A stretch of DNA of 64,000 nt from an uncultured bacterium. Its GTDB lineage: Bacteria > Patescibacteriota > Minisyncoccia > Moranbacterales > GWC2-37-73. The translations under genes and the position numbers were made by a program. The notes under the pieces were generated by a model. The model did no database searches, had not been told where the DNA came from, and saw only the letters and a program-made list of their open reading frames with translations. Of the stretch, positions 3,882-63,245 are shown piece by piece. Every line of letters starts with the position of its first letter. Position 1 is the first letter of the stretch. The stretch is taken from assembly GCA_903837175.1 (NCBI GenBank), contig CAILTR010000050.1, positions 17,513 to 81,512 on the forward strand, written 5' to 3'.

Positions 3882-3945
3882 GATTGTTTTTGGAAAATAT
3901 TTCTTACATCGAATTAATTAAATCAATGTTGCTTTCAAAGAGGCT

Positions 3946-3977
3946 AAGCCTCCCCTTGGAGGCTTAGCCTCTAACGT
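3946..3977. repeat. Hairpin repeat gaggctaagcctc-cccttgg-gaggcttagcctc. Related copies lie at 4165-4180 and 41361-41395.
   Basis: Perfect 13-bp inverted repeat that is GC-rich relative to the surrounding sequence. Confidence 0.7.
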
Positions 3978-4260
3978 CTTATTACTGCAACGCATTAAGT
4001 TAAGTTGGTATAGGTTGGCATTATTTATGCTTCATAAAAATTCGCATTTTTTATCTAACTCTTACCCACGTCTTTTTCGTCGCAGAATTTCCAACCCCAT
4101 CATAAGCCGTCACTTTGATTTCATACGTTCCGCTTGGGGTTGTTTGCAAAACGGTAAACCTGTTGCAAGGAGGCTTAGCCTCCAAAGTCTTGCGACAATG
4201 AATTAAGTTAAATAGTTAGTATTATACGCTAAACTCTTAGCTTTATTATAACACAAAAAA

Positions 4261-5088
4261 CTATTTCCGCACTTTTTTCTTTTCACTTATTTTCTTGAAA
4301 TTATTTCCAGAAACAATCGATCTGCCTAATTCCTTTTCAAGTTCTAGTCTCGCATTTCCAGCCACTCTTCCGCCACGATTGGCATCGTTTTTCAATTTTG
4401 GCAAACCTTTTGAATCCTCTGTGCGATGAATTTCAGTGGTTGAACGTTCGCCAAGCATCGTGAAAATAAGTTCAAAGTCATTCATGTGATCTCGCAAATT
4501 TTCCCGCTCCAACTTTTTCAATTTCTTATATTCACTTGGCGTGACACCGAAAGTCGCCTTGGAAATTTCCGCCGTCAAAATTTCGTATTCCCTTTTTTCT
4601 TTGGCACCTCTTTTTTTCCATTCATCCGTGAGTTCTTCGCGAATGGCAATGCCTCGCATGCGTTTTTCGATCCAATCATCCGAATAGCCTTTCAATTTAT
4701 ACAACATTCTTGTCCGCTTGGTCGCTAGTTCCGGATCTTCGATTTCCTGCACTCGCTCATAACCGACTTTTGCCAACCAACGCTTGAATGGCTCGGCTTT
4801 CGGTGACGGAATAGACTGAATAATGCGGAAAATTCCCTCCGTATTGGCACAATCAGTTTCACGCATTTTCCCGTCTGGTGCCATCAACTTCAAACCGTGA
4901 CAAAATGTCACGACTTCACTCCCATCCTCGTTGAGCCTCTGCTTCAATTTTCTCCAGTAAGCGCCACTATCAAGACTATCTGTGAGCACTTCGCAAATAT
5001 CCACAACCGAAAACCACCATTCATTATTGTGAATGATTTTTCTGACTCCCTTTCCCTTAAAAATCGAGACCTTTGTTTCAATTTCCAT
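4261..5088 (-). CDS. Bro-N domain protein (DinD / phage antirepressor-like).
   Basis: N-terminal ...VSIFKGKGVRKIIHNNEWWFSVVDICEVL... matches the Bro-N fold. Length is similar to E. coli DinD. Confidence 0.7.
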   Translation of the reverse strand: MEIETKVSIFKGKGVRKIIHNNEWWFSVVDICEVLTDSLDSGAYWRKLKQRLNEDGSEVVTFCHGLKLMAPDGKMRETDCANTEGIFRIIQSIPSPKAEPFKRWLAKVGYERVQEIEDPELATKRTRMLYKLKGYSDDWIEKRMRGIAIREELTDEWKKRGAKEKREYEILTAEISKATFGVTPSEYKKLKKLERENLRDHMNDFELIFTMLGERSTTEIHRTEDSKGLPKLKNDANRGGRVAGNARLELEKELGRSIVSGNNFKKISEKKKVRK

Positions 5089-5164
5089 AAAATAATAACT
5101 TTTGATAAAAAATCTTTCCAGTTGAAATGTGCTTTATAATCTCAATTTCCCTAATCTTAATTTT

Positions 5165-13385: not shown

Positions 13386-13446
13386 CATGGAACATGGAAC
13401 ATGAAACATGGAACAAAAATGCTCTATGCTCTATGCTCTATGTTTT
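13386..13446. repeat. CATGGAA heptamer microsatellite plus a gctctat tandem.
   Basis: catggaacatggaacatgaaacatggaac...gctctatgctctatgctctatg. Confidence 0.85.
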
Positions 13447-13453
13447 GTGACTT

Positions 13454-14725: not shown

Positions 14726-14730
14726 AAAAT

Positions 14731-14818
14731 AGCTTCACTAGCTTCACTAGCTTCACTAGCTTATAGCCCATTTTTAGAAAAAATTCTAAAAGCTAAAAAC
14801 TAAAAGCTAAAAGCTATT
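14731..14818. repeat. Tandem cttcactag x3 plus Family D agctaaaagcta repeats between rplO and secY.
   Basis: agcttcactagcttcactagcttcactagc ... ctaaaagctaaaaactaaaagctaaaagcta. Confidence 0.85.
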
Positions 14819-15251
14819 CTTTAATGGTTCCTCCTGCTTTCATTATAACATCTTTAGCAGTTTGTGAAAGGAGTAGCTCCTTCTCAATTGTCAGCTTCTT
14901 AGAAAGATCACCAGTGCTTAAAATTTTCACCCCATCTTTAGCATCTTTCTTGGAAATAACTTTCTTTGCAATTAAAGTTTCGATTGAAACTAGCTCGCCA
15001 TCTTTAAAGTTCTTTTCCAAATCAAAGATTTTAACAACCGTCTTTTTTGGAGTTCTAGATTTAAAACCGCGAACTTTCTTTAGACGTTCTGTCAAGGAGG
15101 ATCTTCCACCTTCAAACAAAGGATCAATCGCTGCTCCTGAGCGGGCTTTTTGACCTTTGTTTCCACGTCCAGAATATGTTCCGCGCTTTCCTCCGCGACC
15201 AACAGTTTTCTTTGGTTTTCTTTTCTTAAGTGTAAGTTGATGAATTTGCAT
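14814..15251 (-). CDS. rplO: Ribosomal protein L15.
   Basis: RGGKRGTYSGRGNKGQK motif. Start is MQIHQL at 15251. Confidence 0.9.
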   Translation of the reverse strand: MQIHQLTLKKRKPKKTVGRGGKRGTYSGRGNKGQKARSGAAIDPLFEGGRSSLTERLKKVRGFKSRTPKKTVVKIFDLEKNFKDGELVSIETLIAKKVISKKDAKDGVKILSTGDLSKKLTIEKELLLSQTAKDVIMKAGGTIKE

Positions 15252-15275
15252 ATGTTTTATATCTCTAATCAACAC

Positions 15276-15363
15276 TAATTATTTCACTAATTATCTCTAA
15301 TATCTTTCAATTTATATTCGCGAACATTCGAGAAAAATTCGTGTCGATTCGCGATTTATATCC
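15276..15363. repeat. Family A intergenic element, copy 1.
   Basis: ...ctctaatcaacactaattatttcactaattatctctaat...attcgcgaacattcgagaaaaattcgtgtcgattcgcgat... Confidence 0.85.
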
Positions 15364-15870
15364 TTAAGCTTCCTTAACCACGACCGCCTCAGCCTTAATC
15401 CTTGGCTCCTTTAGACTTCGCAAAGCTTCAATTGTTGCTCTGGCAACGTTTAATTTATTTGAAGTTCCCAGTGATTTTGAAACAATATCCCGGATTCCAG
15501 CCAAATCAACCACTGCGCGGACAGCTCCTCCAGCAATCACCCCTCGTCCTTCAGCCGCTGGCTTAAGTAAAATTTTAGCACTACCCTTTTTCATTTGAAC
15601 ATCATGCGGGATAGTATTTGCAGATAATTTTACAGTTATCATGCATTTTTTAGCATCGTTGTAAGCTTTTTGGATTGCATCAGAAACATCAGATCCTTTA
15701 GCTACCCCAACCCCAACTTGTCCCTTACGATTTCCGATTACGAGGGTTGCGCGAAAACGAAATCTTCGTCCGCCTTTAACTACGCGAGTAACTCTAGCCA
15801 AATCTAAAAGCTTTTGCTCAAATTCTGGCTTTTCTCTTCTCACTGGTTTTTTGCCTGATCTTTTATCCAT
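15364..15870 (-). CDS. rpsE: Ribosomal protein S5.
   Basis: Conserved S5 sequence. Confidence 0.95.
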   Translation of the reverse strand: MDKRSGKKPVRREKPEFEQKLLDLARVTRVVKGGRRFRFRATLVIGNRKGQVGVGVAKGSDVSDAIQKAYNDAKKCMITVKLSANTIPHDVQMKKGSAKILLKPAAEGRGVIAGGAVRAVVDLAGIRDIVSKSLGTSNKLNVARATIEALRSLKEPRIKAEAVVVKEA

Positions 15871-15983
15871 AATGTTATAAATCTCTAATTAACGCTAATC
15901 TTATCACTAATTATCTCTAATATTTTTCAAATTATATTCGCGAATATTCGAGAAAAATTCGTGTTGATTCGCGATTGATATCC
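15871..15983. repeat. Family A element, copy 2.
   Basis: Same consensus, with four phased ATTCG pentamers. Confidence 0.85.
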
Positions 15984-16334
15984 TTAAAATTTGAGTCCGC
16001 CTTCTCGAGCTCCTTCAGCTAAAGCCTTAACTCTTCCATGATATTGATAACCCGATCTATCGAAAGTCACAGTTTCTATCTTTAAAGCAAGACATTTTTC
16101 AGCAATTAATTTTCCAACTTCCTTGGCGCCTTCAATCGTATTTGAACTCTTCTTAATTTCTGAAAGTTTTGCGCTAGCCAAAGTTTTTCCAGTAGTATCA
16201 TCAATCGCTTGAGCATAAATACTTTTCAAGCTTTTAAAAACCGACAAACGCGGTCGCTCAGCGCTACCTGAAATTTTTGCGCGCACACGACGTTTTCGTT
16301 GCAAACGACTACTATTGTTACTTGGTTTTTTCAT
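15984..16334 (-). CDS. rplR: Ribosomal protein L18.
   Basis: Conserved L18 sequence. Confidence 0.93.
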
Positions 16335-16444
16335 AATGGTATAAATCTCTAATCAACACTAATTATTTCACTAATTATCTCTAATATTTTTAATTATATT
16401 CGCGAACATTCGAGAAAAATTCGTGTCGATTCGCGATTTATTTC
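16335..16444. repeat. Family A element, copy 3.
   Basis: Same consensus. Confidence 0.85.
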
Positions 16445-16981
16445 TTACTTGGATGATTTCTTGCCTTCTTTTCTGCGAACATGTTCTCCGGTGTATTTAA
16501 AGCCTTTTCCTTTATACGGTTCTACTGGCTTAAGCGCTCTGATATTGGCTGAAAATTGTCCAACTTCATGCTTATCAATCCCGGAAACGGTCATTGTATT
16601 TCCTTCAATAATGATTTCAAGCGTTTCTGGAATTTGAACTTCAACTGGGTGTGAAAAACCAAGCGCTAAATTAATTTTCTTACCTGCTACTGCCATACGG
16701 AAACCAACTCCGTTAAGTTCAAGTTGTTTTTTAAAACCAACGGTTACGCCTTCAAACATATTTTCAATAATCCTAGCAGTTGTACCCCAAATCGCTGGCG
16801 CATTTTTTCCTTTTCCTACTTTCGCAACTAAGATAGTTTCCGGTGAAATTTCAATAACGACATCTTCATGATGCTCAAATTTAAGAGTGCCCTTTGGCCC
16901 TTTAACGGAAACCAAATTCTTATCTACAGCGATAGTCACTCCCTGAGGAATAGCTACAGGTTTTTTTCCAATTCTACTCAT
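16445..16981 (-). CDS. rplF: Ribosomal protein L6.
   Basis: Conserved L6 sequence. Confidence 0.95.
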   Translation of the reverse strand: MSRIGKKPVAIPQGVTIAVDKNLVSVKGPKGTLKFEHHEDVVIEISPETILVAKVGKGKNAPAIWGTTARIIENMFEGVTVGFKKQLELNGVGFRMAVAGKKINLALGFSHPVEVQIPETLEIIIEGNTMTVSGIDKHEVGQFSANIRALKPVEPYKGKGFKYTGEHVRRKEGKKSSK

Positions 16982-17094
16982 AATGTTATAAATCTCTAAT
17001 CAACACTAATTATTTCGCTAATTATCCCTAATATTTTTTAAATTATATTCGCGAACATTCGAGAAAAATTCGTGTCGATTCGCGATTTATATAA
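16982..17094. repeat. Family A element, copy 4.
   Basis: Same consensus. Confidence 0.85.
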
Positions 17095-17499
17095 TTACCA
17101 GACTTCACAAATTATTTCACCACCTAAACCGAGTTTTCTTGCGCTATCTCCTGTCATGATTCCTTTCGAAGTGGAAACAATTGAAATCCCATAGCCATTC
17201 TTGATTCGCTTGATATCATTTTTCTTCACATAGATCCGCTGGCCCTGTCTACTTACTCGCTTTATTTCTCTAATGGCCGGATTTTTCTCAGTGTTTGAAA
17301 CAACCTCATACTTCAAAGTTATATTGAGGACTGGAAATTTTTCTCCGTCTTCTTTTTTCACAGCTTGAATAAAATTTCGTTGCTGCAAAATTTGAGCAAT
17401 TGAATATTTTAACTTCGAAAAAGGAACCGAAACTTTTGCATGTTTCGCTCGCTGTGCATTTCGAATTCTTGTAAGCATGTCTGCTATTGGATCTAACAT
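17095..17499 (-). CDS. rpsH: Ribosomal protein S8.
   Basis: MLDPIADMLTRIRNA N-terminus. Confidence 0.95.
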   Translation of the reverse strand: MLDPIADMLTRIRNAQRAKHAKVSVPFSKLKYSIAQILQQRNFIQAVKKEDGEKFPVLNITLKYEVVSNTEKNPAIREIKRVSRQGQRIYVKKNDIKRIKNGYGISIVSTSKGIMTGDSARKLGLGGEIICEVW

Positions 17500-17639
17500 A
17501 TTCTAATTCATTATCCTAATTATATTTAAATGATATAAATCGCCAATCTTCACTAATCTTTTCACTAATAATCACTAATTTTGAAATTTTATTTGCGATT
17601 ATTCGAGATACTATTTGAGTTGATTCGTGATTTATAATG
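17500..17639. repeat. Family A element, copy 5 (divergent).
   Basis: ...cactaat...attcgagatactatttgagttgattcgtgat... Confidence 0.6.
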
Positions 17640-17825
17640 CTACCAACTACTTTTCTTTACTCCGGGCAATTCACCTTTACTTGCTAATTCGCGAAAGCAA
17701 ATTCTGCAAATATCAAATGCTCGAAGATAACCATGTTTTCGACCACAACGCCAACACCTTCGCACAATCCGTGTCGAAAATTTTGGTTTCTTCTCTGCTC
17801 TAGCTTGGGTAGATGTTTTCGCCAT
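17640..17825 (-). CDS. rpsZ: Ribosomal protein S14 type Z (zinc-binding).
   Basis: 61 aa with CWRCGRKHG...CRIC. Confidence 0.93.
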
Positions 17826-17995
17826 TTTTGTCTATGAGCGGAGCGAGTAGCTACAAAAATGAGCGTCCCGCACCAATTCTTAAATTAAACTTTATCTTAT
17901 ATCAAACTGAGCCGTAGGCGAATTCCGAAAGAAAATTTCAATTCTACTTAAAAACTTCTTTCGGAATTGTTTGCGGGACAGCCATCACAATTTAT
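17826..17995. promoter_or_regulatory. Structured 170-nt spacer between rplE and rpsZ built from nested inverted repeats.
   Basis: Outer gtcccgca (17865-17872) pairs with tgcgggac (17972-17979). An inner perfect 11-bp stem ttccgaaagaa (17924-17934) pairs with ttctttcggaa (17957-17967). Confidence 0.5.
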
Positions 17996-18544
17996 TTATT
18001 CGCTTTTCAGTGGAAATCCTAATAATTTAAATAATTCCAATCCCTGCTCTTGTGAAACAGCACTAGTTGAAACTGTTACTTGCAATCCAAAAGTGTGTTT
18101 TACTCGTTCAGGTGAAATTTCAGGAAAAATTAAATGCTCTCTAATTCCAATATTAATGTTGCCACTCGTATCAACCGATTTTCTACCAATTCCCTGGAAA
18201 TCTCGCGTTCTTGGAAGGGTTGCTACAATCAATCTATCAATAAACTGCCACATTCTTGCTCCGCGCAAAGTTACTTTCACACCGACTTCCATGCCTTCTC
18301 TAGTCTTAAAGCCGGCGATTGCTTTCTTAGCTTTCGTCTTAACTGGTTTTTGACCAGTAATCGCAGTTAGTGTATTGACGATCTCTTCAATTTTATCATT
18401 TTCTTTGACAATTTTTCCAATTCCAACATTAACAACCACTTTCTGAATGCGAGGTACTGCCATAACACTCTTATAGCCAAACTTTTCTTGCATTTGCTTT
18501 GCAACTGTTTTGGAATATTTTTCTTTTGCTGGAATTATTTTCAT
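17996..18544 (-). CDS. rplE: Ribosomal protein L5.
   Basis: Conserved L5 sequence. Confidence 0.95.
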   Translation of the reverse strand: MKIIPAKEKYSKTVAKQMQEKFGYKSVMAVPRIQKVVVNVGIGKIVKENDKIEEIVNTLTAITGQKPVKTKAKKAIAGFKTREGMEVGVKVTLRGARMWQFIDRLIVATLPRTRDFQGIGRKSVDTSGNINIGIREHLIFPEISPERVKHTFGLQVTVSTSAVSQEQGLELFKLLGFPLKSE

Positions 18545-18651
18545 AATAGTATAAATCTCTAATTAATCACTAATCTATTTCACTAATTATCCCTAATGTT
18601 TTTTATTCGCGACTATTCGAGAAAAATTCGTGTCGATTCGCGATTTATTTT
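18545..18651. repeat. Family A element, copy 6.
   Basis: Same consensus. Confidence 0.85.
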
Positions 18652-18957
18652 CTACATTTCTTTCCCACATTTCTTACATACTCGGACCTTTTTCTCTTGC
18701 ACAAACGCATATGAGGTTCGGGTCGATTTACCGCAGGATGGGCAAACCAACATCGCATTTGAAGCATCGAACGGAGCAGCCATTTCAACCCGCTGGCCCT
18801 TTTCACCTTCTCGGCGAGCTTTCTTATGCTTCTTTACAATATTCATTTTTTCAACCACGATCCTTCCCTCACTTGGAATTGTTCGGAGGACTTTCCCCTG
18901 TTTACCCTTATCCTTACCGGCAATTTTTTTTACGAGGTCTCCTTTTTTAATTCTCAT
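18652..18957 (-). CDS. rplX: Ribosomal protein L24 with a C-terminal Cys4 zinc ribbon.
   Basis: KOW motif GKDKGKQGKV, then CPSCG...CKKCG at the C-terminus. Confidence 0.92.
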   Translation of the reverse strand: MRIKKGDLVKKIAGKDKGKQGKVLRTIPSEGRIVVEKMNIVKKHKKARREGEKGQRVEMAAPFDASNAMLVCPSCGKSTRTSYAFVQEKKVRVCKKCGKEM

Positions 18958-19066
18958 AATGTTATAAATCTCTAATTAACGCTAATCTTATCTCTAATTA
19001 TCTCTAATATTTTTTACTATTCGCGAAAATTCGAGAAAAATTCGTGTCGATTCGCGATTGATATCC
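18958..19066. repeat. Family A element, copy 7.
   Basis: Same consensus. Confidence 0.85.
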
Positions 19067-19432
19067 TTACAGTACTTCTGGAGCCAATGAAACAATCTTG
19101 GCAAATCCTTTTTCTCGCAATTCTCTAGCGATTGGTCCAAAAATACGAGTTCCCTTCGGTTCTTTTTCATTAACAATCACAGCGGCATTTTCATCAAAGC
19201 GAATATAGGAACCATCTTTTCTGCGATAAGCTTTTCGTTGGCGAACAATCACAGCCCGAACCTTATCTCCCTTTTTTACTAAACCTCTTGGTTCAGCTGA
19301 TTTCACAGAGCAAACAATGATATCTCCAACCGAAGCATAACGTCTGCGAGTTCCACCAAGAACCTTGAAGCATTCAATTATTTTTGCTCCAGAATTATCC
19401 GCTGCTCTTAATCTTGTTTCTGCCTGAATCAT
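19067..19432 (-). CDS. rplN: Ribosomal protein L14.
   Basis: [18 protein letters not shown]-terminus. Confidence 0.95.
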
Positions 19433-19543
19433 ATGTTTAAATAAATCTCTAATTAACGCTAATCTTATCTCTAATTATCTCTAATATTTTTTACTATTCG
19501 CGATCATTCGAGAAAAATTCGTGTCGATTCGCGATTGATATCC
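19433..19543. repeat. Family A element, copy 8.
   Basis: Same consensus. Confidence 0.85.
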
Positions 19544-19783
19544 TTATATTACGATGTGATTTTTATCCTTACTCATTGGCCGACATTCAGTAAACTCTAC
19601 CACCTCTCCAACCTTGTGCTTATTTTCGGCGTCATGAACCTTATAGTTTTTGGTCGATCGATACTTCTTTAAATATTTCGGATGCGTCTTCAAGGATTGA
19701 ACAGCCACCACAATAGTCTTATCCATTGAGTCACTCACAACTTTACCTTTTTTTGTTGCTAATTTTTTAGTAGTGTTTGTCAT
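19544..19783 (-). CDS. rpsQ: Ribosomal protein S17.
   Basis: Conserved S17 OB-fold sequence. Confidence 0.93.
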   Translation of the reverse strand: MTNTTKKLATKKGKVVSDSMDKTIVVAVQSLKTHPKYLKKYRSTKNYKVHDAENKHKVGEVVEFTECRPMSKDKNHIVI

Positions 19784-19811
19784 ATCCTAGTTTTTATCCT
19801 AATTATATATT

Positions 19812-20000
19812 TTATTGCTCTTTCTCTTTTAGAATAGTCATCGCCCGCGCTACATCCTTTTTAAGCTCGCGGTACTCTCGATGATTCTTAAGCTGACGAG
19901 CTGCAATATCAAATCTAAGCTTAACTGCTTGAGATTGCTTCTCAGCGATTAATTTCTTAATCTGCTCAATATTTAAATCTCTAATTTCCAAAATTTTCAT
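19812..20000 (-). CDS. rpmC: Ribosomal protein L29.
   Basis: 62-aa helical protein in the conserved position between S17 and L16. Confidence 0.9.
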   Translation of the reverse strand: MKILEIRDLNIEQIKKLIAEKQSQAVKLRFDIAARQLKNHREYRELKKDVARAMTILKEKEQ

Positions 20001-20113
20001 AATGTTATAAATCGCTAATTAATCACTAATCTACTTCCCTAATTATCCCTAATGTTCTTTTCTTATTCGCGACCATTCGAGAAAAATTCGTGTCGATTCG
20101 CGATTACTATCCT
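20001..20113. repeat. Family A element, copy 9.
   Basis: Same consensus. Confidence 0.85.
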
Positions 20114-20527
20114 CTATTTTTCCTTAACTACAAATTTCGTCTTAACGCATAGTTTGTGAGAAGCCAATCTCATCGCCTCTTTAGCAACTGAGATATCTAT
20201 GCCATCCATCTCAAACAAAACTCTGCCTTCCTTGGTCTTGGCTACAAAATGATCAACACTACCCTTTCCTTTACCCATCGGAGTTTCATCACCCTTCTTA
20301 GTCATCGGTTTATCCGGGAAAATTCTAATCCAAATCTTTCCACCTCTCTTAATATACCTCGTCATCGCTCTTCGAGCAGCTTCGATCTGACGAGCTGAAA
20401 TTAATCCTGAGGTTGTTGCTTTAAGACCAAAGCTACCGAAACTTACAGTATTACCTTTGGTTGCAACTCCACGGATTGCTCCTCCGCGATGAATCTTCCT
20501 GTGTTTTACTTTTTTTGGCATCAACAT
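20114..20527 (-). CDS. rplP: Ribosomal protein L16.
   Basis: [11 protein letters not shown] start at 20527. The ORF extension to 20551 lies inside a degenerate Family A remnant. Confidence 0.93.
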
Positions 20528-20595
20528 ATATTTTGGTAAATCCCTAATCAACGCTAATTATTCCCTAATTTTCTCGAATCTTTTTTCATTGGTGA

Positions 20596-21273
20596 CTATT
20601 TAAGACTAGCTTCAGCTTGATTCGCATTTTTTTCTTCAAAGACTTCTCCCTTGTAAATCCAAGTCTTAATTCCAATTGCGCCATAGGTAGTGAACGCCGT
20701 AGCTTTAGCGAAATCTATGTCAGCCCGTAGCGTATGCAATGGAACCGTTCCTCTTGAAAGCCATTCTCTTCTAGCCATTTCAGCTCCGCCCAAACGACCG
20801 CAAATCTCAATCTTGACTCCCTTAACAATTCTATTTTTTTCAACTGTATCAAGGGTTGATTTCAAAATACGTCTAAATGGCACTCGCTTTTCTAACTGTT
20901 CAGCCACGCTTTGCGCAACTAGCGAAGCATTTTCCTCAAACTGACGGACTTCCTGAGCTTCTATTTTAAGGTCAACCTTCCTACCGGCGAAAAAGTTTTT
21001 CTTAATCACTACTCCCATATCAACGATACCAGTGCCACCCCTTCCAATCAGAACTCCCGGGCGCGATGTTTTCACGATCAATTTTAGAGTATTTGCGCTA
21101 CGCTCAATTTCAACCTCTGCAATTGCCGCTGCTTTATACTTTTTCATGATAAACTCCCTAATTTGGATATCCTCCTTGAGTTTTTTAGTATAATCCTTAT
21201 CTGAAAACCACCTTGATTTCCAAGTGTTGGTAATACCTATTCTAAGTCCAGTTGGGTTAACTTTATGTCCCAT
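20596..21273 (-). CDS. rpsC: Ribosomal protein S3.
   Basis: MGHKVNPTGLRIG N-terminus and a KH domain. Confidence 0.95.
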   Translation of the reverse strand: MGHKVNPTGLRIGITNTWKSRWFSDKDYTKKLKEDIQIREFIMKKYKAAAIAEVEIERSANTLKLIVKTSRPGVLIGRGGTGIVDMGVVIKKNFFAGRKVDLKIEAQEVRQFEENASLVAQSVAEQLEKRVPFRRILKSTLDTVEKNRIVKGVKIEICGRLGGAEMARREWLSRGTVPLHTLRADIDFAKATAFTTYGAIGIKTWIYKGEVFEEKNANQAEASLK

Positions 21274-21312
21274 AAATTCTAATTTAATATCCTAATTATA
21301 TGCTAATTAAAT

Positions 21313-21873
21313 TTAAACGCCTGATTTCCGCTGAAAAACTTTATTCAAAAAATTACCATCTTGTTGTTGTCCTTTTTTAGGAACTTCCTTTTTTACAGCA
21401 GTCTTTTTCGTCGCAGTCTTTTTTTCGCCCACAACTTCAGCGTCTTGCACCTCTTCTTCTTTAACGCTTTTCTTGATAGCCTTTTCTTTCACGGCTCGTT
21501 CCTTCTCTAACTGCTCTTTCGATTTACGATTTTTACCTTCGACTCGCTCTTCCAATTCCAAATCAATCTGGGAAGTTCTCTTGAGAATCAAAGTTGCTCT
21601 TCCTTGAGCCCTTGGCAACCATCTTTTTAAACTTGGTCCCCCGCCAACTTGAATATTATTTACAAACAAATTGTCCTTATCTAAACCAAAGTTATTTTCC
21701 GCATTTGCAATCGCGCTTCGCAGAAGCTTTTCCAAAGGATTACTTGTTTTCTTAACAAGGTTTTGCAATTGGATCAATGCCACAGAGCAGTTCATCCCAA
21801 CAATGCTGCGGGTAACTAATCTAACCTTTCGGGGAGACATTCTTAAATTTTTGAGTGTTGCTGTAACTTTCAT
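21313..21873 (-). CDS. rplV: Ribosomal protein L22 with a ~70-aa Lys/Glu-rich C-terminal extension.
   Basis: L22 core at the N-terminus, then a low-complexity KEKAIKKSVKEEE... tail. Confidence 0.92.
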   Translation of the reverse strand: MKVTATLKNLRMSPRKVRLVTRSIVGMNCSVALIQLQNLVKKTSNPLEKLLRSAIANAENNFGLDKDNLFVNNIQVGGGPSLKRWLPRAQGRATLILKRTSQIDLELEERVEGKNRKSKEQLEKERAVKEKAIKKSVKEEEVQDAEVVGEKKTATKKTAVKKEVPKKGQQQDGNFLNKVFQRKSGV

Positions 21874-22021
21874 GTATTTCTCTACGAATTACTAATTTGT
21901 ACGAATGTACGAATCATGATTCATTTGTATATGACATTAAATTCTAACTTTTATTAAATTTATAATCTCTTTTGCATTTCTTTCGTATATTCGTATCTGT
22001 TCGTAATTCGTAGAGATTTAC
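21874..22021. repeat. Family B-type element with terminal inverted repeats ctctacgaattac / gtaattcgtagag.
   Basis: TIRs lie at 21880-21892 and 22003-22015. Internal tacgaat repeats. Confidence 0.7.
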
Positions 22022-22369
22022 CTATTTTTTCTTCGCTCCTCCTGCTGGTTCAGCCTTGGCTGCTTTAGCGGCATCTTGCGCTTTTTGCTTAGCTGCTGAT
22101 TCTAATTCTTTCTGCATCTTCCCTCCATGTCGGGTGAACTTACGAGTTGGAGAAAATTCTCCAAGTCTATGCCCAACTGTTTCTTCAGTAATATAAACTG
22201 GGATAAATTCTTTTCCATTATGCACTCCGAAAGTAAAACCAATCATTTCTGGGGTAATCGTGCAAGCTCGAGACCAGGTCTTAATAGTTCCTTGCGCTGG
22301 GGTTGCATTTAAAACCTTCTTTACAACGCGCTCATCAATATATGGTCCTTTTTTTAAACTTCTTGACAT
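22022..22369 (-). CDS. rpsS: Ribosomal protein S19 with a Lys/Ala-rich C-terminal tail.
   Basis: [13 protein letters not shown]-terminus; tail ...[24 protein letters not shown]. Confidence 0.93.
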
Positions 22370-22482
22370 AATGTTATAAATCTCTAATCAATGCTAATTA
22401 TTTCACTAATTATCTCTAATATTTCTCAATGCTTATTCGCGAAAATTCGAGAAAAATTCGTATCGATTCGCGACTATTATCC
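22370..22482. repeat. Family A element, copy 11.
   Basis: Same consensus. Confidence 0.85.
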
Positions 22483-23313
22483 TTATTTCTTAACTCTTCG
22501 TTTAACGATAAACTTATCGCTGTATCTCTTTTTCTTTCTGGTCTTTTTTCCAAGCGCTGGCTTACCCCAAGGTGTTTTCGGATGTTTCAACCCAATTCCT
22601 TGTCTGCCTTCTCCTCCTCCATGTGGATGATCAACTGGATTCATAGCTGAACCTCGAACTTCCGGTCTTTTTCCTTTCCATCGATTTCTTCCAGCCTTAC
22701 CAATTTTTTCAGCGCTATGTTCGAAATTACTTACTTTCCCAATCGTTGCCCAGCAATCCTTACTAACCAATCTGATTTCATTAGAGGCCATTTTAAGCTG
22801 AGCCATTTTTCCATCGATAGCCATCAAAATTGCTCCTGAGCCAGCACTGCGAGCCATCTGTCCGCCCTTCCCAACCACTAACTCCACATTTGAAATAACT
22901 GTACCGGAAGGAATATTACGAAGAACAGTTCTATTTCCCTTTTTAATCGGTGCATTTTCTCCAGAAACAATTTCAACATCTTGTTTCATCCCTTCGGAGG
23001 CAAGCACATATCGCTTATCACCATCTTTATAAGATACCAAAGCAATCAAAGCACTTCTGTTTGGATCTCTTTCGATTGCAATAATTTTTCCAGGAATATC
23101 AAATTTCTGTTGTTTAAAATCAACTAAGCGATAGCGTCGTTTGTGTCCACCACCTTGATGCCTAGTAGAGATTTTTCCGTGACTGCGTCCGGCCTTTTGG
23201 GTCATTGGAGCAAGTAAAGATTTCTCCGGTTTTTTGTCGGTAAGATCGTCAGGCTTAACAATAGACATATTGCGCCTTCCCGCTGTATTTTTTTTGTATA
23301 CTTTAATTGCCAT
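22483..23313 (-). CDS. rplB: Ribosomal protein L2.
   Basis: Conserved L2 sequence, including the GGGHKRRYR region. Confidence 0.96.
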   Translation of the reverse strand: MAIKVYKKNTAGRRNMSIVKPDDLTDKKPEKSLLAPMTQKAGRSHGKISTRHQGGGHKRRYRLVDFKQQKFDIPGKIIAIERDPNRSALIALVSYKDGDKRYVLASEGMKQDVEIVSGENAPIKKGNRTVLRNIPSGTVISNVELVVGKGGQMARSAGSGAILMAIDGKMAQLKMASNEIRLVSKDCWATIGKVSNFEHSAEKIGKAGRNRWKGKRPEVRGSAMNPVDHPHGGGEGRQGIGLKHPKTPWGKPALGKKTRKKKRYSDKFIVKRRVKK

Positions 23314-23423
23314 AATAGTATAAATCTCTAATCAACACTAATTATTTCACTAATTATCACTAATATTCTTCTTATTCGCGATTATTCGAGTTTAAATTCG
23401 AGTCGATTCGCGATTTCTATCCG
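23314..23423. repeat. Family A element, copy 12.
   Basis: Same consensus. Confidence 0.85.
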
Positions 23424-23807
23424 CTAGGCTCCCTGGAATAGTTCAATTTTATCTCCCTCTTTCAGAGTAACGATTGCTTTTTTAATCGCTGACTTCGTAC
23501 CTTCAAATCTACCATATACTCTCTTTTTCGGGATAAAATTCATTACTGCAACCTTCTCAACTTTAACTTTATAAAAACCCTCGATTGCCTTTTTAACCTC
23601 AGCTTTCGTAGCCTGCCTGGTAATCCTAAAAACATATTTATTATCGGCAAGTCCCGCGTGTGATTTTTCCGTAATCCAAGGCTCCACTAAAATTTTATAA
23701 GCAATTTCAGCATTTTCAACAGCGATAGGCAAAACCTTTTTCGCTACTTTCTTAACTGCCACTTCTTTCTTTGAAGTCTTTTCTTTTTTTTCTTCAATTA
23801 CTGCCAT
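23424..23807 (-). CDS. rplW: Ribosomal protein L23 with a Lys-rich N-terminal extension.
   Basis: L23 core (YVFRI...KVKVEKV) preceded by roughly 30 extra residues. Confidence 0.9.
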   Translation of the reverse strand: MAVIEEKKEKTSKKEVAVKKVAKKVLPIAVENAEIAYKILVEPWITEKSHAGLADNKYVFRITRQATKAEVKKAIEGFYKVKVEKVAVMNFIPKKRVYGRFEGTKSAIKKAIVTLKEGDKIELFQGA

Positions 23808-23895
23808 ATATTTTTACCGATACGAAACTACGAATTATATACGAATCTACGAAACTTTTCGAATGGGCGCTTTCGTGGTGCGCTTTTCGCATGCT
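23808..23895. repeat. Family B element, copy 1: ccgatacgaaactacgaattatatacgaatctacgaaa...gggcgctttcgtggtgcgc.
   Basis: Nearly identical to the copy at 24526-24614. Confidence 0.85.
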
Positions 23896-24525
23896 TTATT
23901 TTGCAAATTTTTCTTCCAAAAATGTAATCGAGGCCTTACTCAAAAGCACATATTTATTATTGAGTAAATCATATACATTCAAATCTTTCGTCTCAATGTT
24001 AGCTATTTTTGGAATATTTCGGCTAGCTAAAGTCAAACTCTTCTCTCCTTCTGAAAATGAAACCAAAATTTTTCCGGTTAATTTCAAATTTTTTATAATT
24101 TGAGCAAAAGCTTTAGTTTTTTTGTCTTTAAGTTCAAGTGCGTCAACGGCCACAAGGGTCCCGCTGCGAAGCTTTTCACTTAGGGCAATACGTACCGCCT
24201 TTTGCTTCATCTTCTTATTCACATCTCTTTTAAAATTACGATCACTTGTTGGTCCGAAAGCTACTCCACCACCTTTCATGACAGGATTTCGCTTCTGGCC
24301 TTGTCTAGCACTACCGGTGCCCTTTTGCTTAAAGGGTTTCTTTCCGCTTCCAGCAACTTCACTCTTATCTTTTGTATTAGCAATTGAAAATCGCTGATTA
24401 CCAGCAATCACCATAAAAACTTGATGCAAAAGTTCATCATTTGATTTCACGGCGAAAACTGCATCTGAGATATTTAAATCTTCAAGCTTTTTTCCTTCTA
24501 AGTTGTGCAGGGCAATTGTAGCCAT
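23896..24525 (-). CDS. rplD: Ribosomal protein L4.
   Basis: Conserved L4 sequence. Confidence 0.94.
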   Translation of the reverse strand: MATIALHNLEGKKLEDLNISDAVFAVKSNDELLHQVFMVIAGNQRFSIANTKDKSEVAGSGKKPFKQKGTGSARQGQKRNPVMKGGGVAFGPTSDRNFKRDVNKKMKQKAVRIALSEKLRSGTLVAVDALELKDKKTKAFAQIIKNLKLTGKILVSFSEGEKSLTLASRNIPKIANIETKDLNVYDLLNNKYVLLSKASITFLEEKFAK

Positions 24526-24614
24526 AATATTTATACCGATACGAAACTACGAATTATATACGAATCTACGAAATTTTCGAATGGGCGCTTTCGTAGTGCG
24601 CTTTTCGGATGCTT
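24526..24614. repeat. Family B element, copy 2.
   Basis: Nearly identical to the copy at 23808-23895. Confidence 0.85.
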
Positions 24615-25175
24615 CTATCCTCGAATTTCCACAATCCTTCCAACCACTCCTGGCACTCCGCCGAGGATACCAATCAGATTCTTTTCGAGATTCAAATAAA
24701 CAACCTTCATATTTTTAACTGATTTTCTTTTTCCGCCCATCCGTCCGGCCATTTTCTTTCCCTTGATAACATGCTGAGGTTGTTGAGCACCAATTGAACC
24801 AGGTGCGCGAAGATCATGCTTGTGTCCATGGGAAGCTGGAGATCCGCCGAAGCCATGACGCTTCACAACTCCTTGAAATCCTTTCGCTTTAGCAATTCCA
24901 CTAACCTTCACAATATCTCCAATTGCAAAATTTTCAACTGAAACTTTATCCCCGACTGCCAGCGTTACAGCTTCTGAACCTCTAAATTCTTTTCGATGAG
25001 TCACTCTGCGAGTTTTTTCAGTCGCAAGTTGCACAGCGCTGTAACCATCCTTTTCAATCGTTCTTACCACCGAAACGGTATTTGGCTCACATTCAATCAA
25101 GGTCACATTCAGTGCGCCTTGTTGTTGATCATACAACGTTGTCATCCCCATTTTTTTCCCTAAAATATGTTTCAT
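24615..25175 (-). CDS. rplC: Ribosomal protein L3.
   Basis: Conserved L3 sequence. Confidence 0.94.
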   Translation of the reverse strand: MKHILGKKMGMTTLYDQQQGALNVTLIECEPNTVSVVRTIEKDGYSAVQLATEKTRRVTHRKEFRGSEAVTLAVGDKVSVENFAIGDIVKVSGIAKAKGFQGVVKRHGFGGSPASHGHKHDLRAPGSIGAQQPQHVIKGKKMAGRMGGKRKSVKNMKVVYLNLEKNLIGILGGVPGVVGRIVEIRG

Positions 25176-25206
25176 ATCAGTAATTTTCTAATCTTTATCT
25201 TTAAAT

Positions 25207-25230
25207 TCGCCTGCCTGCCGGTAGGCAGGT
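25207..25230. repeat. GC-rich palindromic REP-like element cgcctgcctgccggtaggcaggta. A second hairpin ctggcttctcagccag lies at 25243-25258.
   Basis: Read directly from the sequence. Confidence 0.7.
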
Positions 25231-25390
25231 AGTTATAAAAAAACTGGCTTCTCAGCCAGCTCAATCAAAGGAATAATCCTTCGACTTAGCTAATTGAGTA
25301 TCCAACTTTTCAGTGGGACTTTAACTAGTTTTTTTCTTTTTTTCTAACTTATCTATTGTAAACCAATTCTTAAATTTATGCAAGCCTTTT

Positions 25391-25486
25391 AAGCGATTCG
25401 CGATTATTTGCATGTGTCCCCTTCCATCATTCGCATGTGCCCCATTCGTTATTCGCATGGGCGCTTTCGTAGTGCGCTTTCGCATG
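25391..25486. repeat. Family B variant with cattcgcatg x3 and a shared right arm gggcgctttcgtagtgcgctttcgcatgct.
   Basis: Right arm matches the Family B copies at 23808 and 24526. Confidence 0.7.
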
Positions 25487-27251: not shown

Positions 27252-27279
27252 ATTCTACACGATTAATAAATACTGTCAA
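27252..27279 (-). promoter_or_regulatory. Candidate sigma70-like promoter upstream of tuf and the S10 operon: TTGACA, 16 nt, TAGAAT.
   Basis: On the minus strand, cTTGACAgtatttattaatcgtgTAGAATaaac sits about 145 nt upstream of the tuf start. Confidence 0.4.
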
Positions 27280-29821: not shown

Positions 29822-30033
29822 AGAATATTTCTTATTATTGAATTAAAGAATTACAGAAATTTTGAATTTCTAATTTTGAATTTTGAATCAATTTTTAATT
29901 TTTCAATATTTCAAACATTCAATCATTAGAATTTGATTCGAAATTCAAAATTCAGAATTCGAAATTATTTGCAGTATTTGATTACTAGTTACTAACTACC
30001 GATTACTAGTTACTGATTACTAGTTACTAGTTA
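29822..30033. repeat. Low-complexity tandem repeat region: ttactagttac units plus aattttgaatt/aattcaaaatt inverted motifs.
   Basis: Read directly from the sequence. Confidence 0.8.
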
Positions 30034-37718: not shown

Positions 37719-37766
37719 ACACCTACGAAATTACAAAATTATTACAAAAATACAAACGGATTTACT

Positions 37767-40334: not shown

Positions 40335-40606
40335 AAACCGATACGAAACTACGAATTAAATACGAATCTACGAAAATTATGCTAATACAAACCTACAAAT
40401 CGAATCCAAATCTACGAAATTTTATTATCAAGCGAAGCGAGAGGAACAAAAGTATTCTTTCGATTCCGAGCTCTGCCTGACGGCTTGTCTACTGGGAGGC
40501 ATGCAAACAGGGAGCGACGATAACAAAAGTATCAATGCACCTTTTTTGATTTTTTTTCGTAGATTCGTACCCTCATTCGTAGTTTCGAATCGGTAAACTC
40601 AGATAA
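40335..40606. repeat. Composite element: an inverted pair of Family B arms (40335-40376 and 40556-40592) flanking about 180 nt of higher-GC unique sequence.
   Basis: Left arm ccgatacgaaactacgaat...; right arm ...attcgtagtttcgaatcgg is its reverse complement. Confidence 0.6.
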
Positions 40607-41293: not shown

Positions 41294-41360
41294 AAAAATT
41301 AGTTATAAAATTTAAAGTAATAAAGTTGAAAGTTATAAAGTGGAAAGTGGAAACATTTCA

Positions 41361-41395
41361 GAGGCTAAGCCTCCCCTTAGAGGCTTAGCCTCTAG
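41361..41395. repeat. Hairpin repeat gaggctaagcctcccctt-agaggcttagcctc. Same family as 3946-3977.
   Basis: Sits in the divergent trmD/folC intergenic region. Confidence 0.7.
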
Positions 41396-51462: not shown

Positions 51463-51551
51463 AAGCATAAAACACGAAACATGGAGCAAGCAATGCGCTG
51501 CGTGTTATGTGTTTTATGTTATGTGTTATGTGTTATGTGTTCTATGATTTA
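51463..51551. repeat. Heptamer microsatellite (gttatgt/catggaa family).
   Basis: ...gtgttatgtgttttatgttatgtgttatgtgttatgtgttctatg. Confidence 0.8.
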
Positions 51552-63093: not shown

Positions 63094-63245
63094 AGGAATT
63101 CTTACCTCATTAGAAAATAAACCACAGTTAAAGTATACCCAAAACAAAGGGGAAAAGCAAGCTAAACAAGTTATAAAGTTATAAAGTTTATAAAGTTCAT
63201 AAAGTTATAAAGTTTATAAAGCTTTAAAGGATTATAAAACGTACC

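Follow-up and report, generated by a model that had tools for sequence, protein, structure and literature searches.

We analyzed a 64,000-nucleotide stretch of contig CAILTR010000050.1 from an uncultured member of the Patescibacteria (hereafter, the window) and characterized Family B, a short repeat rich in TACGAA that lies between ribosomal protein genes. Family B is a non-coding cassette that extends from a stop codon to the next start codon. It is built on a four-word module that occurs across the Patescibacteria, or candidate phyla radiation (CPR), and its arms point outward to the flanking genes. The words are conserved while the bases between them drift, relatives do without the cassette, and strains with nearly identical coding sequences (CDS) carry different cassettes at the same junctions. 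We hold, with about even confidence, that Family B is a small, non-autonomous mobile junction cassette resembling repetitive extragenic palindromic (REP) elements and MITEs (miniature inverted-repeat transposable elements), assembled on this superphylum-wide module.

Family B Forms Entire Spacers in the S10-spc Cluster

The window has a G+C content of 38%, and its minus strand carries nearly all of the genes. By its relatives, the genome falls among Moranbacteria-like Patescibacteria. According to Pfam labels, tuf followed by the S10-spc ribosomal protein cluster (S10, L3, L4, L23, L2, S19, L22, S3 ... L15, SecY) spans 13.4–27.1 kb. The spacers of this cluster are mostly 85–150 nt long, an unusual length for bacteria. 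Shine-Dalgarno motifs are nearly absent 5' of the window genes; the single clear GGAGG-type case is located at 1540–1554, and even tuf is without one.

The first full copy of Family B (24526–24614, minus strand) is the entire L3/L4 spacer and is matched exactly in two independent assemblies, L121 and L124 (three-digit L numbers designate retrieved loci). In the mRNA sense, it reads TAG-AAGCATCCGAAAAGCGCACTACGAAAGCGCCCATTCGAAAA-TTTCGTAGATTCGTATATAATTCGTAGTTTCGTATCGG-TATAAATATT-ATG. Its start-side module (24536–24572, minus strand) consists of four TTCGTA words and a terminal TCGG (CCGA on the plus strand, 24536–24539); read as TACGAA on the plus strand, the words begin at 24540, 24548, 24559, and 24567, a spacing of 8-11-8. 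The stop-side half contains a GC mini-hairpin, GGGCGC-TTTCGTAGT-GCGC (24583–24601), with the middle one of three CGAA/TTCG words, 14 nt apart, in its loop. The second full copy (23808–23895, minus strand) is the entire L4/L23 spacer, with the array at 23817–23853 and the mini-hairpin at 23865–23883. The halves of the two copies show 96% and 93% identity, and together these 88–89-nt sequences give the consensus, from stop to ATG, (A)AGCAT(C/G)CGAAAAGCGCAC(T/C)ACGAAAGCGCCCATTCGAAAA(G)-TTTCGTAGATTCGTATATAATTCGTAGTTTCGTATCGG-TA(T)AAATAT(T)-ATG. Across copies, Family B measures 84–89 nt, with the termini CCGA...TCGG, a start-side half of four TTCGTA words followed by TCGG, and a stop-side half of three CGAA words every 14 nt around the GCGC/GCGC stem. 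The first-pass annotation of this DNA had placed the TACGAA units 9–12 bp apart; between successive word starts, the measured distances are 8, 11, and 8 nt.

The four-word array TACGAA-nn-TACGAA-n5-TACGAA-nn-TACGAA occurs at three exact sites in the window (23821, 24540, and 40342), against 0.00 expected in shuffled sequences, and a fourth array at 37724 has three mismatches. The hairpin module GCGCAC(T/C)ACGAAAGCGC is present three times, against 0.04 expected. TACGAA itself occurs 50 times (28.9 ± 5 expected), and the surplus sits in arrays. These counts and the two full copies bear out the annotation's proposal of a second repeat family in addition to Family A, the other repeat of the cluster. 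Besides one palindrome made of the same words, the 64 kb contains two full and three partial copies. The annotation had also assigned Family B to four junctions and regarded it as filling those that Family A leaves free. The assignment holds for L3/L4 and L4/L23; S10/L3 contains only about 40 nt of the stop side, S19/L22 holds the palindrome, which is a different element, and the description as filling the remaining junctions was thus overstated.

Rfam gave no match over the window at the gathering score and, at E ≤ 1, a single spurious mir-379 outside Family B; applied to six other loci, it returned tRNAs only, and no 16S rRNA 3' end, which would bear on an alternative anti-Shine-Dalgarno pairing, was found. 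No tRNA was found in a scan of the 64-kb window. On the transcribed minus strand, no intrinsic terminator (GC stem with T-run) was found in the Family B copies, while such terminators were found after tuf and within S10/L3. Weak plus-strand terminator matches touch the flank of the Family B mini-hairpin.

Cassettes Are Replaced between Nearly Identical Strains

Relatives were retrieved with the L4, S19, L3, and L14 proteins of the window from independent ENA, JGI, and Logan assemblies. L121 and L124 reproduce the window alleles exactly. In a sister haplotype from other ENA samples and Logan (L122, L123, L158, and L165), the CDS are 99.5–99.8% identical from tuf to L22, and 14 of the 19 compared spacers are replaced. 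Family B gives way there to TAGACAA/TGATTAC words at L3/L4 and to a short Family A element at L4/L23. In L122, Family A is exchanged for AAATGTA/TTTTGA words at L23/L2 and for Family B at L2/S19, the palindrome at S19/L22 is exchanged for Family B, the L22/S3 spacer grows from 39 to 141 nt, and more replacements follow down the cluster. The annotation had suggested that sister genomes would reveal mobility, and they do: Family B lies at L3/L4 and L4/L23 in the window, and at L2/S19 and S19/L22 in a strain whose CDS are 99.5–99.8% identical. The replaced tract begins at the stop codon and extends precisely up to the ATG. The stop codon often toggles between TAA and TAG, with Family B nearly always after TAG, and single-nucleotide polymorphisms are concentrated in the last ~30 nt of the upstream gene, with no such clustering in the opening codons of the gene downstream.

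A third haplotype, from JGI (L127–L131), with CDS ~90% identical to the window carries Family B at L4/L23, L2/S19, S19/L22, L16/L29, and S14/S8. Its L4/L23 copy is identical to that of the window at 88 of 88 positions, while the flanking L4 and L23 CDS differ by 13% and 7%. Within a single JGI population, L16/L29 is occupied by Family B in one sample and by a palindrome in another. Other relatives have Family B at L16/L29, S14/S8, L14/L24, or L22/S3. Among distant relatives, at ~74–76% nucleotide identity to the window, L153 (~74% overall) has one Family B copy, at L3/L4, ~92% identical to the window copy by hand count, and a TAGTTA/AACTAA family fills at least nine of its junctions. In L154 and L140, Family B occupies S14/S8, the L24/L5 and S8/L6 junctions hold palindromes, and a 66-nt CGAAT family is present in other places. 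L139 and L147 combine compact junctions (0–34 nt, one with AGAGG) with single Family B insertions, and compact spacers therefore look ancestral.

Copies of the same family tend to sit at neighboring junctions, and cassettes are more alike between lineages than their flanking genes. Family B is one of at least eight interchangeable word-array cassette families in this lineage. Judged from these comparisons, the cassettes are dispensable insertions, which move and replace one another.

Two further observations concern the units of exchange. Contig fm1lXInJ encodes the exact S19 protein of the window; between L3 and S19, its spacers measure 14–23 nt and its L4, L23, and L2 proteins differ slightly, and from S19 on it is spaced like L122. 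It looks like a recombinant of compact and cassette-laden lineages. The L22/S3 cassette of L127 and L160 differs from that of L122 by nested insertions, namely a GC-rich hairpin of 31 nt (cccgtttcgcctaaggcgaagccgaggtgga) and an extension of 35 nt on the 5' side, on which grounds small GC hairpins may be separate insertable units.

A Four-Word Module Is Found across the Patescibacteria

We scanned one genome per species, 185,579 species in all, for the pattern TACGAA-nn-TACGAA-n4-7-TACGAA-nn-TACGAA and obtained at least 120 loci. By our own reckoning, chance alone would yield ~0.02 matches to 24 specified bases in 596 Gb. The survey statistics given here (arms, distances, and gene neighbors) are those among the matches listed, with genes taken from crude open reading frame (ORF) calls. 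By title, 79 matches belong to Patescibacteria/CPR, 22 to unclassified "bacterium", 16 to third-party annotation assemblies titled Gammaproteobacteria (title unverified), and three to other taxa. At least 12 CPR groups are represented: Saccharibacteria, Parcubacteria, Doudna-, Uhr-, Moran-, Falkow-, Portnoy-, Nomura-, Lipton-, Yanofsky-, Buchanan-, and Peribacteria. One "Bifidobacterium"-titled contig (L118) was left out of the statistics; it has a long TACGAATG-type tandem repeat beside an N run (4700–5100), which is probably collapsed or misassembled. Viral contigs scanned for the array gave no matches and thus no sign of a phage origin.

The canonical module is (C/T)TACGAA×4, a loop of 0–66 nt, and TTCGTA×4(G), commonly with several copies per genome. 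When the triggering sites were masked, TACGAA was still the top array word in the flanks, and the next independent word was CTAATT, the word of Family A. The arm order is TACGAA..TTCGTA in 41 elements and the reverse in none, indicating that the arms point outward to the flanking genes.

Slippage with quasi-palindrome correction in AT-rich spacers, or an artefact of metagenome assembly and strain mixing, could in principle create such arrays. The window is full of idiosyncratic 7–11-nt word arrays of many kinds, and every sequence considered here comes from a metagenome assembly. However, more than 70 genomes of many classes share this hexamer with its geometry and arm order, where we estimate ~0.02 by chance, and the words are kept while their spacers drift. 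Each allele is reproduced across samples and assemblers (ENA, JGI, and Logan), so that every copy recurs independently and the assembly duplication envisaged in the first-pass annotation does not apply; the 84–148-nt cassettes also have unique coding sequence on both sides. We regard this explanation as highly improbable and, for practical purposes, excluded.

The arrays are positioned with respect to gene boundaries. Half-elements (n = 84) adjoin the boundary that they face in 63 cases, against 21 for the opposite side, with median distances of 15.5 nt ahead and 75.5 nt behind. TTCGTA-type arrays lie 2–20 nt before an ATG, and TACGAA-type arrays just 3' of a stop codon. In 37 tandem gene pairs, the median distance is 9 nt from the stop codon to the beginning of the palindrome and 18 nt from its end to the next start codon. 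The neighboring genes are housekeeping genes representing 113 Pfam families; a regulon with a single function was therefore discarded. Recurrent neighbors are groEL (five cases, always with the array as the whole groES/groEL spacer), an AAA ATPase that we take to be RarA (four), and pilC (three), and nusA, cysS, and scpA also occur. The L1 gene, at the L11/L1 junction, adjoins arrays in three loci. In L037 (2965–3212), 4 nt separate the end of a TTCGTA array from a tRNA-Ser(CGA)-like sequence, which has a T-arm insertion, is not called by ARAGORN, and lies ~120 nt 5' of a normal tRNA-Ser(CGA).

This arrangement could reflect transcription initiation. The TTCGTA array would then be an outward-facing promoter or operator, in which word 1 is -35-like and the TA-nn-TT of words 3 and 4 serves as the -10 element, 16–17 bp away. 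Transcription would start 2–4 nt past word 4 (at TCGG or G), yielding a leaderless or very short-leader mRNA, and the palindromes would be back-to-back divergent sites. The proximity of the arrays to start codons, mostly without a Shine-Dalgarno motif, is in accordance with this idea, as are the preference of half-elements for starts over gene ends (51 vs 20), the enrichment of G at the first two positions past word 4, and the array 4 nt before the tRNA-Ser-like gene. The middle spacer is 4–5 nt in 136 of 143 arrays, which gives the 16–17 bp between hexamers; the alternative geometry TTCGTA-16/17-TAnnTT follows by construction in every array. Outward promoters also predict the absence of the face-to-face order (0 of 41). 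Arrays often come after terminator-like hairpins of the upstream gene, both window copies match TCGAAA-16/17-TATAAT at 10 of 12 positions, and the recurrence 5' of groEL, rarA, pilC, nusA, L1, and cysS resembles a regulon.

Nevertheless, we consider a promoter function unlikely. Many sites are within classical operons (groES/groEL, L11/L1, S6-SSB-S18-L9, and S10-spc), the cassette is dispensable in relatives with compact junctions, and unrelated word families occupy the same junction in near-identical strains. The TATAAT of the window is not kept, the sister copies reading TAATTAAT or CACTTAAT. The genome has canonical TTGACA/TAGAAT promoters, and promoter-like matches in the region number 32, against 34.9 in shuffled sequences. 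The stop-side arrays and the left arms in the 37 tandem contexts would be antisense promoters, and START-facing and END-facing arrays show no clear difference in the quality of their -10-like hexamers. Two variants of this idea were dropped: the middle spacers are too heterogeneous to be a conserved -10 element, and a reading of the extracytoplasmic function (ECF) type, with CGTA of word 4 as the -10, would place the start within genes whose ATG is 2–5 nt past the array.

The arrays might instead act in the RNA, as an intercistronic hairpin formed between UACGAA words on the stop side and UUCGUA words on the start side. Pairing would bring the stop and start codons near each other and hide the start until a terminating ribosome melts the base of the stem, resulting in translational coupling or re-initiation without a Shine-Dalgarno motif, or it could create an RNase III-type processing or stabilizing site. 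Complete palindromes form very stable RNA hairpins (-33 to -52 kcal/mol; z = -4.4 to -10), and their median distances from stop and start are within reach of a terminating ribosome. Several sites are in classically coupled pairs (groES/groEL, L11/L1, and the S10 operon), Shine-Dalgarno motifs are nearly absent from the genome, and the other cassette families of the lineage likewise have left words complementary to their right words. In contrast, the two full Family B copies fold no better than shuffled sequences (z = +0.4 and +1.2), and half-elements are common (84); the groES/groEL spacer of L058 has a right arm only (z = +1.5). The spacers between words are not complementary from arm to arm (39% vs 38% in the control), and the words show neither covariation nor G-U asymmetry, pairing-preserving (wobble-compatible) transitions not being in excess (8 vs 9). 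The hairpin module is found in either orientation with respect to transcription, and folding and non-folding cassettes alternate at one junction in near-identical strains. We therefore judge an RNA function improbable, and a hairpin was rejected as the conserved feature.

The lineage-specific, Moranbacteria-type form of the module (...TTCGTATCGG) was found at 23 loci in a metagenome scan, with an ATG within 1–15 nt in most. From their N-termini, the genes that follow are presumably ssb, obg, L9, L24, S8, S3, L4, efp, scpA, and L1. The left part at these loci is a palindromic arm ending in CCGA, a GC-hairpin module (making the element Family B), or an unrelated hairpin. The stems of the mini-hairpin are GCGC/GCGC, CCCCC/GGGGG (L011), or CCGGC/GCCGG (L147); the latter two are fully compensated, the loop word TTCGTAG is kept, and the orientation relative to transcription in L147 is opposite to that in the window. 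The constancy of the hexamers, the drift of the spacers, and the lack of arm complementarity or wobble bias point to the words, rather than the hairpin, as what is kept, and the words are probably read by a protein.

A Proposed Mobile Junction Cassette

The cassette sits in the gap of a few nucleotides between a stop codon and the next co-directional ATG and hence makes up the whole spacer. We propose that the words, together with the CTAC/GTAG of the hairpin loop and of the outer ends, would be the sites of a conserved DNA enzyme acting in trans. This might be a recombinase, or else a transposase of the HUH/Y1 type, as with REP elements and their REP-associated tyrosine transposases (RAYTs). 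The words are taken as binding or cleavage sites because the hexamers stay perfectly intact as the bases between them drift, and because the outermost words have the form CTACGAA...TTCGTAG. The enzyme would copy cassettes with a preference for neighboring junctions, and homologous recombination between strains would shuffle the cassette alleles. The cassette would ride in the operon mRNA as a passenger, and might be tolerated because the genes use no Shine-Dalgarno motif and its A/U-rich end provides the start context.

Several observations weigh against mobility of this kind. No target-site duplication of two to five nucleotides was seen by eye in the flanks of 11 Family B and ~10 palindromic copies. 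No transposase or recombinase was found between or beside the arrays in ~1.1 Mb of sampled loci and ten scanned window proteins, nor was any transposase family found among 85 array-adjacent proteins. Family B is without a proper left inverted repeat and has only CCGA...TCGG and degenerate left CGAA words; its palindromic relatives have terminal inverted repeats, which are the 12-nt perfect ends of the S19/L22 element and CCGATACGAAAC...GTTTCGTATCGG elsewhere. The same junctions are re-occupied in distant lineages well above the rate of random insertion (groES/groEL five times, rarA four, pilC three, and L11/L1 three), as would be expected if a host function were under selection or if targets were strongly preferred. 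Whole-spacer replacement, with its breakpoints at the stop and the ATG, could arise solely through homologous recombination among old alleles. The crude ORF calls in the survey also call for caution. A transposon with cargo between distant arms was considered and rejected; in the sampled loci, such intervals contained only glycosyltransferase genes or an inverted gene duplication.

Partial Copies, Palindromes, and Other Spacers

A partial Family B copy (25447–25486, minus strand) lies straight after the S10 stop codon; it comprises ~40 nt of the stop side, with the mini-hairpin at 25459–25477. The S10/L3 spacer is a composite, with the Family B stop-side module first, followed by the A-like TCGCGAATCGC. 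This 311-nt spacer (25176–25486) is kept between strains and in a relative at ~74% identity. Two hairpins lie within it, one terminator-like with a T-run (25262→25241, minus strand) and one of the form GCCTGCC..GGCAGGC. Folding of the 3' half of the spacer gives z = -5.4, and no Pfam match was obtained for a 54-aa ORF called at 25321–25485. By analogy with the L4-controlled S10 leader of Escherichia coli, the spacer could be an unrecognized leader or attenuator for L3-L4.

The palindrome in the S19/L22 spacer (21874–22021, 148 nt) uses the same words without being a copy of Family B. Its arms (21881–21913, TACGAA on the plus strand; 21982–22015, TTCGTA on the plus strand) enclose a ~68-nt AT-rich loop, and the spacer folds at -36.3 kcal/mol (z = -6.6). 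The terminal inverted repeats that the annotation reported here are confirmed as a perfect 12-nt pair at ~21881–21892 and 22004–22015. In relatives, this cassette type is found at L14/L24, L16/L29, L24/L5, or S8/L6.

At the trmD/ftsW junction, a start-side module of four TTCGTA words and TCGG (40335–40379, minus strand) ends 3 nt 5' of the ftsW start, and the orthologous site is conserved in L061. It is followed by a degenerate second array (40380–40423, minus strand), a 71% copy with the words TTCGTA, TTTGGA, TTCGAT, TTTGTA, and TTTGTA. The inverted partner arm (40548–40593, plus strand), with TTCGTA words and TCGG, ends 13 nt from the trmD stop, and together with the first module forms a TACGAA..TTCGTA palindrome with a loop of ~170 nt. 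The inverted pair described earlier at 40335–40606 is therefore real, whereas its unique part is ~125 nt (40424–40547) instead of 180 nt, the rest being the degenerate array. The unique part includes a duplicated ATACTTTTGTT, is kept in L061, folds on the minus strand at z = -2.7, and has no Rfam match; a small RNA is possible. A decayed start-side array 5' of murC (37719–37761, minus strand) is a 63% copy, in which three of the four words have changed from CG to TG (TTTGTA) and the 8-11-8 spacing is kept.

The remaining junctions of the cluster are heterogeneous. The tuf/S10 (92 nt) and L5/S14 (170 nt) spacers contain other, structured sequence, and L22/S3 (39 nt) and L29/S17 (28 nt) contain short ATTAG-type words only, so that the earlier statement that every junction carries a repeat is too broad. 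The L5/S14 spacer (17826–17995) forms a long stem, AAUUCCGAAAGAA.../...UUCUUUCGGAAUU (z = -3.6, no Rfam match), and its sequence is kept between strains and in L154 and is missing from L153 and L139; it may be a ribosomal protein leader. A near-consensus sigma-70 promoter, TTGACA-16-TAGAAT, is located at 27252–27279, ~150 nt 5' of tuf, and TGnTATAAT-type boxes occur in several other spacers.

Additional repeats are scattered through the window. A second hairpin family, GCCTGCC(N4-6)GGCAGGC, has five copies (10765, 25205, 28825, 58388, and 58592); it is also present in L011, L080, L147, and other Patescibacteria loci, at times within word-array cassettes, and in L147 substitutes for the Family B mini-hairpin. 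A third, AGAGGCTAAGCCTCC..GGAGGCTTAGCCTCT, has three (3939–3973, 4150–4184, and 41360–41394), and related CTCCCCTTA..TAAGGGGAG hairpins lie in the loops of TACGAA palindromes in L077 and L112. Other arrays of 7–9-nt words, namely CATGGAAC/GTTCCATG, CTTTTAG/CTAAAAG, TAACTAG, ACACATA, ACTTTATAA, and TTTGAAT/ATTCAAA, make up many spacers, for example at 2753–2835, 13403–13453, 14726–14813, 29822–30033, 51483–51541, and 63148–63245. Their left words are usually complementary to their right words, they reach the ATG, and some occupy S10-spc junctions in sister strains.

Relation to Family A

The first-pass annotation described the CGAA/TTCG core of Family B as that of Family A in the opposite orientation. 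The two families in fact have stop-side CGAA(T) words in common, running in the same orientation, and differ on the start side (TTCGTA in Family B and ATTAG in Family A). Nor is the mutual exclusivity that it considered strict: composites exist at S10/L3 and at S14/S8 of L160 and L140, where Family B is followed by ATTAG words. At the Family A junctions (14814–23423), the start-side ATTAG is one base from ATTCG, and TTAGTA alternates with TTCGTA in arrays of other CPR genomes (L015, L019, and L103). With the stop-side words in common, these similarities suggest that Family A may be a derivative of the same system.

Significance

Small intergenic repeat elements in general are already known. 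A search of PMC and bioRxiv full text aimed at this family found no description of such elements in CPR, and the GeneMarkS-2 paper does not cover CPR. Hexamer-word arms common to Patescibacteria, full occupation from stop to start, and cassette exchange in S10-spc between near-identical strains are distinctive here and appear undescribed.

Patescibacteria account for a large share of bacterial diversity, and to our knowledge almost nothing is known about how CPR initiate transcription and translation or how their streamlined genomes change. We tentatively suggest, while considering it the less probable outcome, that the four-word array is a Patescibacteria-wide, protein-read code for gene boundaries or expression, which would replace Shine-Dalgarno and operon conventions (as promoter, short-leader start, and/or stop-start coupling) and which, in some lineages, would take the form of exchangeable cassettes re-tuning housekeeping genes. 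The 24-base word pattern offers a handle for finding its reader protein and a simple marker for CPR contigs.

The most conserved operon of bacteria is here a hotspot of spacer replacement between strains 99.7% identical in coding DNA. Such micro-diversity is new in kind, is invisible to marker-gene and average nucleotide identity analyses, and can confuse strain-resolved assembly. If the cassettes affect expression, they would provide modular tuning of essential-gene dosage; if they are selfish, symbiont genomes of ~1 Mb would carry active non-coding mobile DNA within essential operons.

Comparison with Known Systems

Bacterial MITEs in transcribed spacers include the Correia/NEMIS elements of Neisseria, RUP and BOX of pneumococcus, and ERIC/IRU of enterobacteria. 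Like the cassettes described here, they are ~100–150 nt long, with intergenic sites in operons, co-transcription, hairpins, and insertion polymorphism; they also have terminal inverted repeats, a trait of the palindromic relatives of Family B. The cassettes differ in that no target-site duplication and no cognate insertion sequence (IS) element were found, and their "inverted repeat" consists of repeated sub-sites. Moreover, Family B has a GC mini-hairpin module in place of one arm, and the closest strains show allele replacement instead of filled and empty sites.

The hexamer core TACGAA is identical to that of the SigX (ComX) box, TACGAATA, of streptococcal late competence promoters, which is present as one sense box with a T-tract upstream, 7–25 nt (up to ~70) before the ATG (PMC6001120). 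TACGAATA is a frequent version of the word in our arrays, the SigX variants TgCGAA, cACGAA, and TtCGAA match stop-side words of Family B, and pilC and ssb are among the adjacent genes. Unlike SigX boxes, the arrays have four boxes, place TTCGTA, the opposite orientation, on the strand next to the ATG, and adjoin general housekeeping genes. A SigX-box reading was rejected, since the sense strand has TTCGTA in all Family B copies and in 51 of 71 half-elements with a boundary ≤60 nt ahead, and a T-tract is missing; the resemblance is probably coincidental.

Ribbon-helix-helix (RHH) proteins bind arrays such as the omega heptads of pSM19035, the boxes of the ParG tetramer (8-bp period), and tandem 8-bp MetJ boxes. 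RHH and TACGAA arrays both consist of short asymmetric sub-sites (6–8 bp) with a 7–8-bp period, in direct or inverted order and with free spacers, and the 8-11-8 geometry with direct and inverted words is compatible with RHH operators. However, RHH arrays are located at one or a few promoters of their own system, while TACGAA arrays are at dozens of housekeeping boundaries in each genome and across a superphylum, and we know of no cognate protein for them. The RNase III hairpins of T7 early mRNA and rRNA processing stems are likewise long interrupted hairpins between cistrons, without conserved repeated words, half-elements, or mobility between junctions.

REP elements and bacterial interspersed mosaic elements (BIMEs) occur in enterobacteria and pseudomonads, and are associated with RAYT (Y1/HUH) transposases. 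Their palindromes are imperfect, GC-rich, and 20–40 nt long, and end in a conserved GTAG/CTAC tetranucleotide. They and Family B alike lie between co-transcribed genes as short, non-coding palindromes, in many cases no more than ~15 nt from the stop codon; both have many copies per genome, lineage variants, and strain-level presence and absence, and both are probably read by a protein rather than merely folded. The tetranucleotide has a counterpart in the outer words CTACGAA...TTCGTAG. Family B has a 19-nt GC mini-hairpin with three stem versions, and its GTAG/CTAC lies in the loop or words and not 5' of the stem. In place of the GC-rich single stem of REP, the elements described here have AT-rich arms of four hexamers with a fixed 8-11-8 spacing. 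Finally, REP sequences are species-specific, whereas the TACGAA words are common to a superphylum and the elements that carry them reach the downstream ATG.

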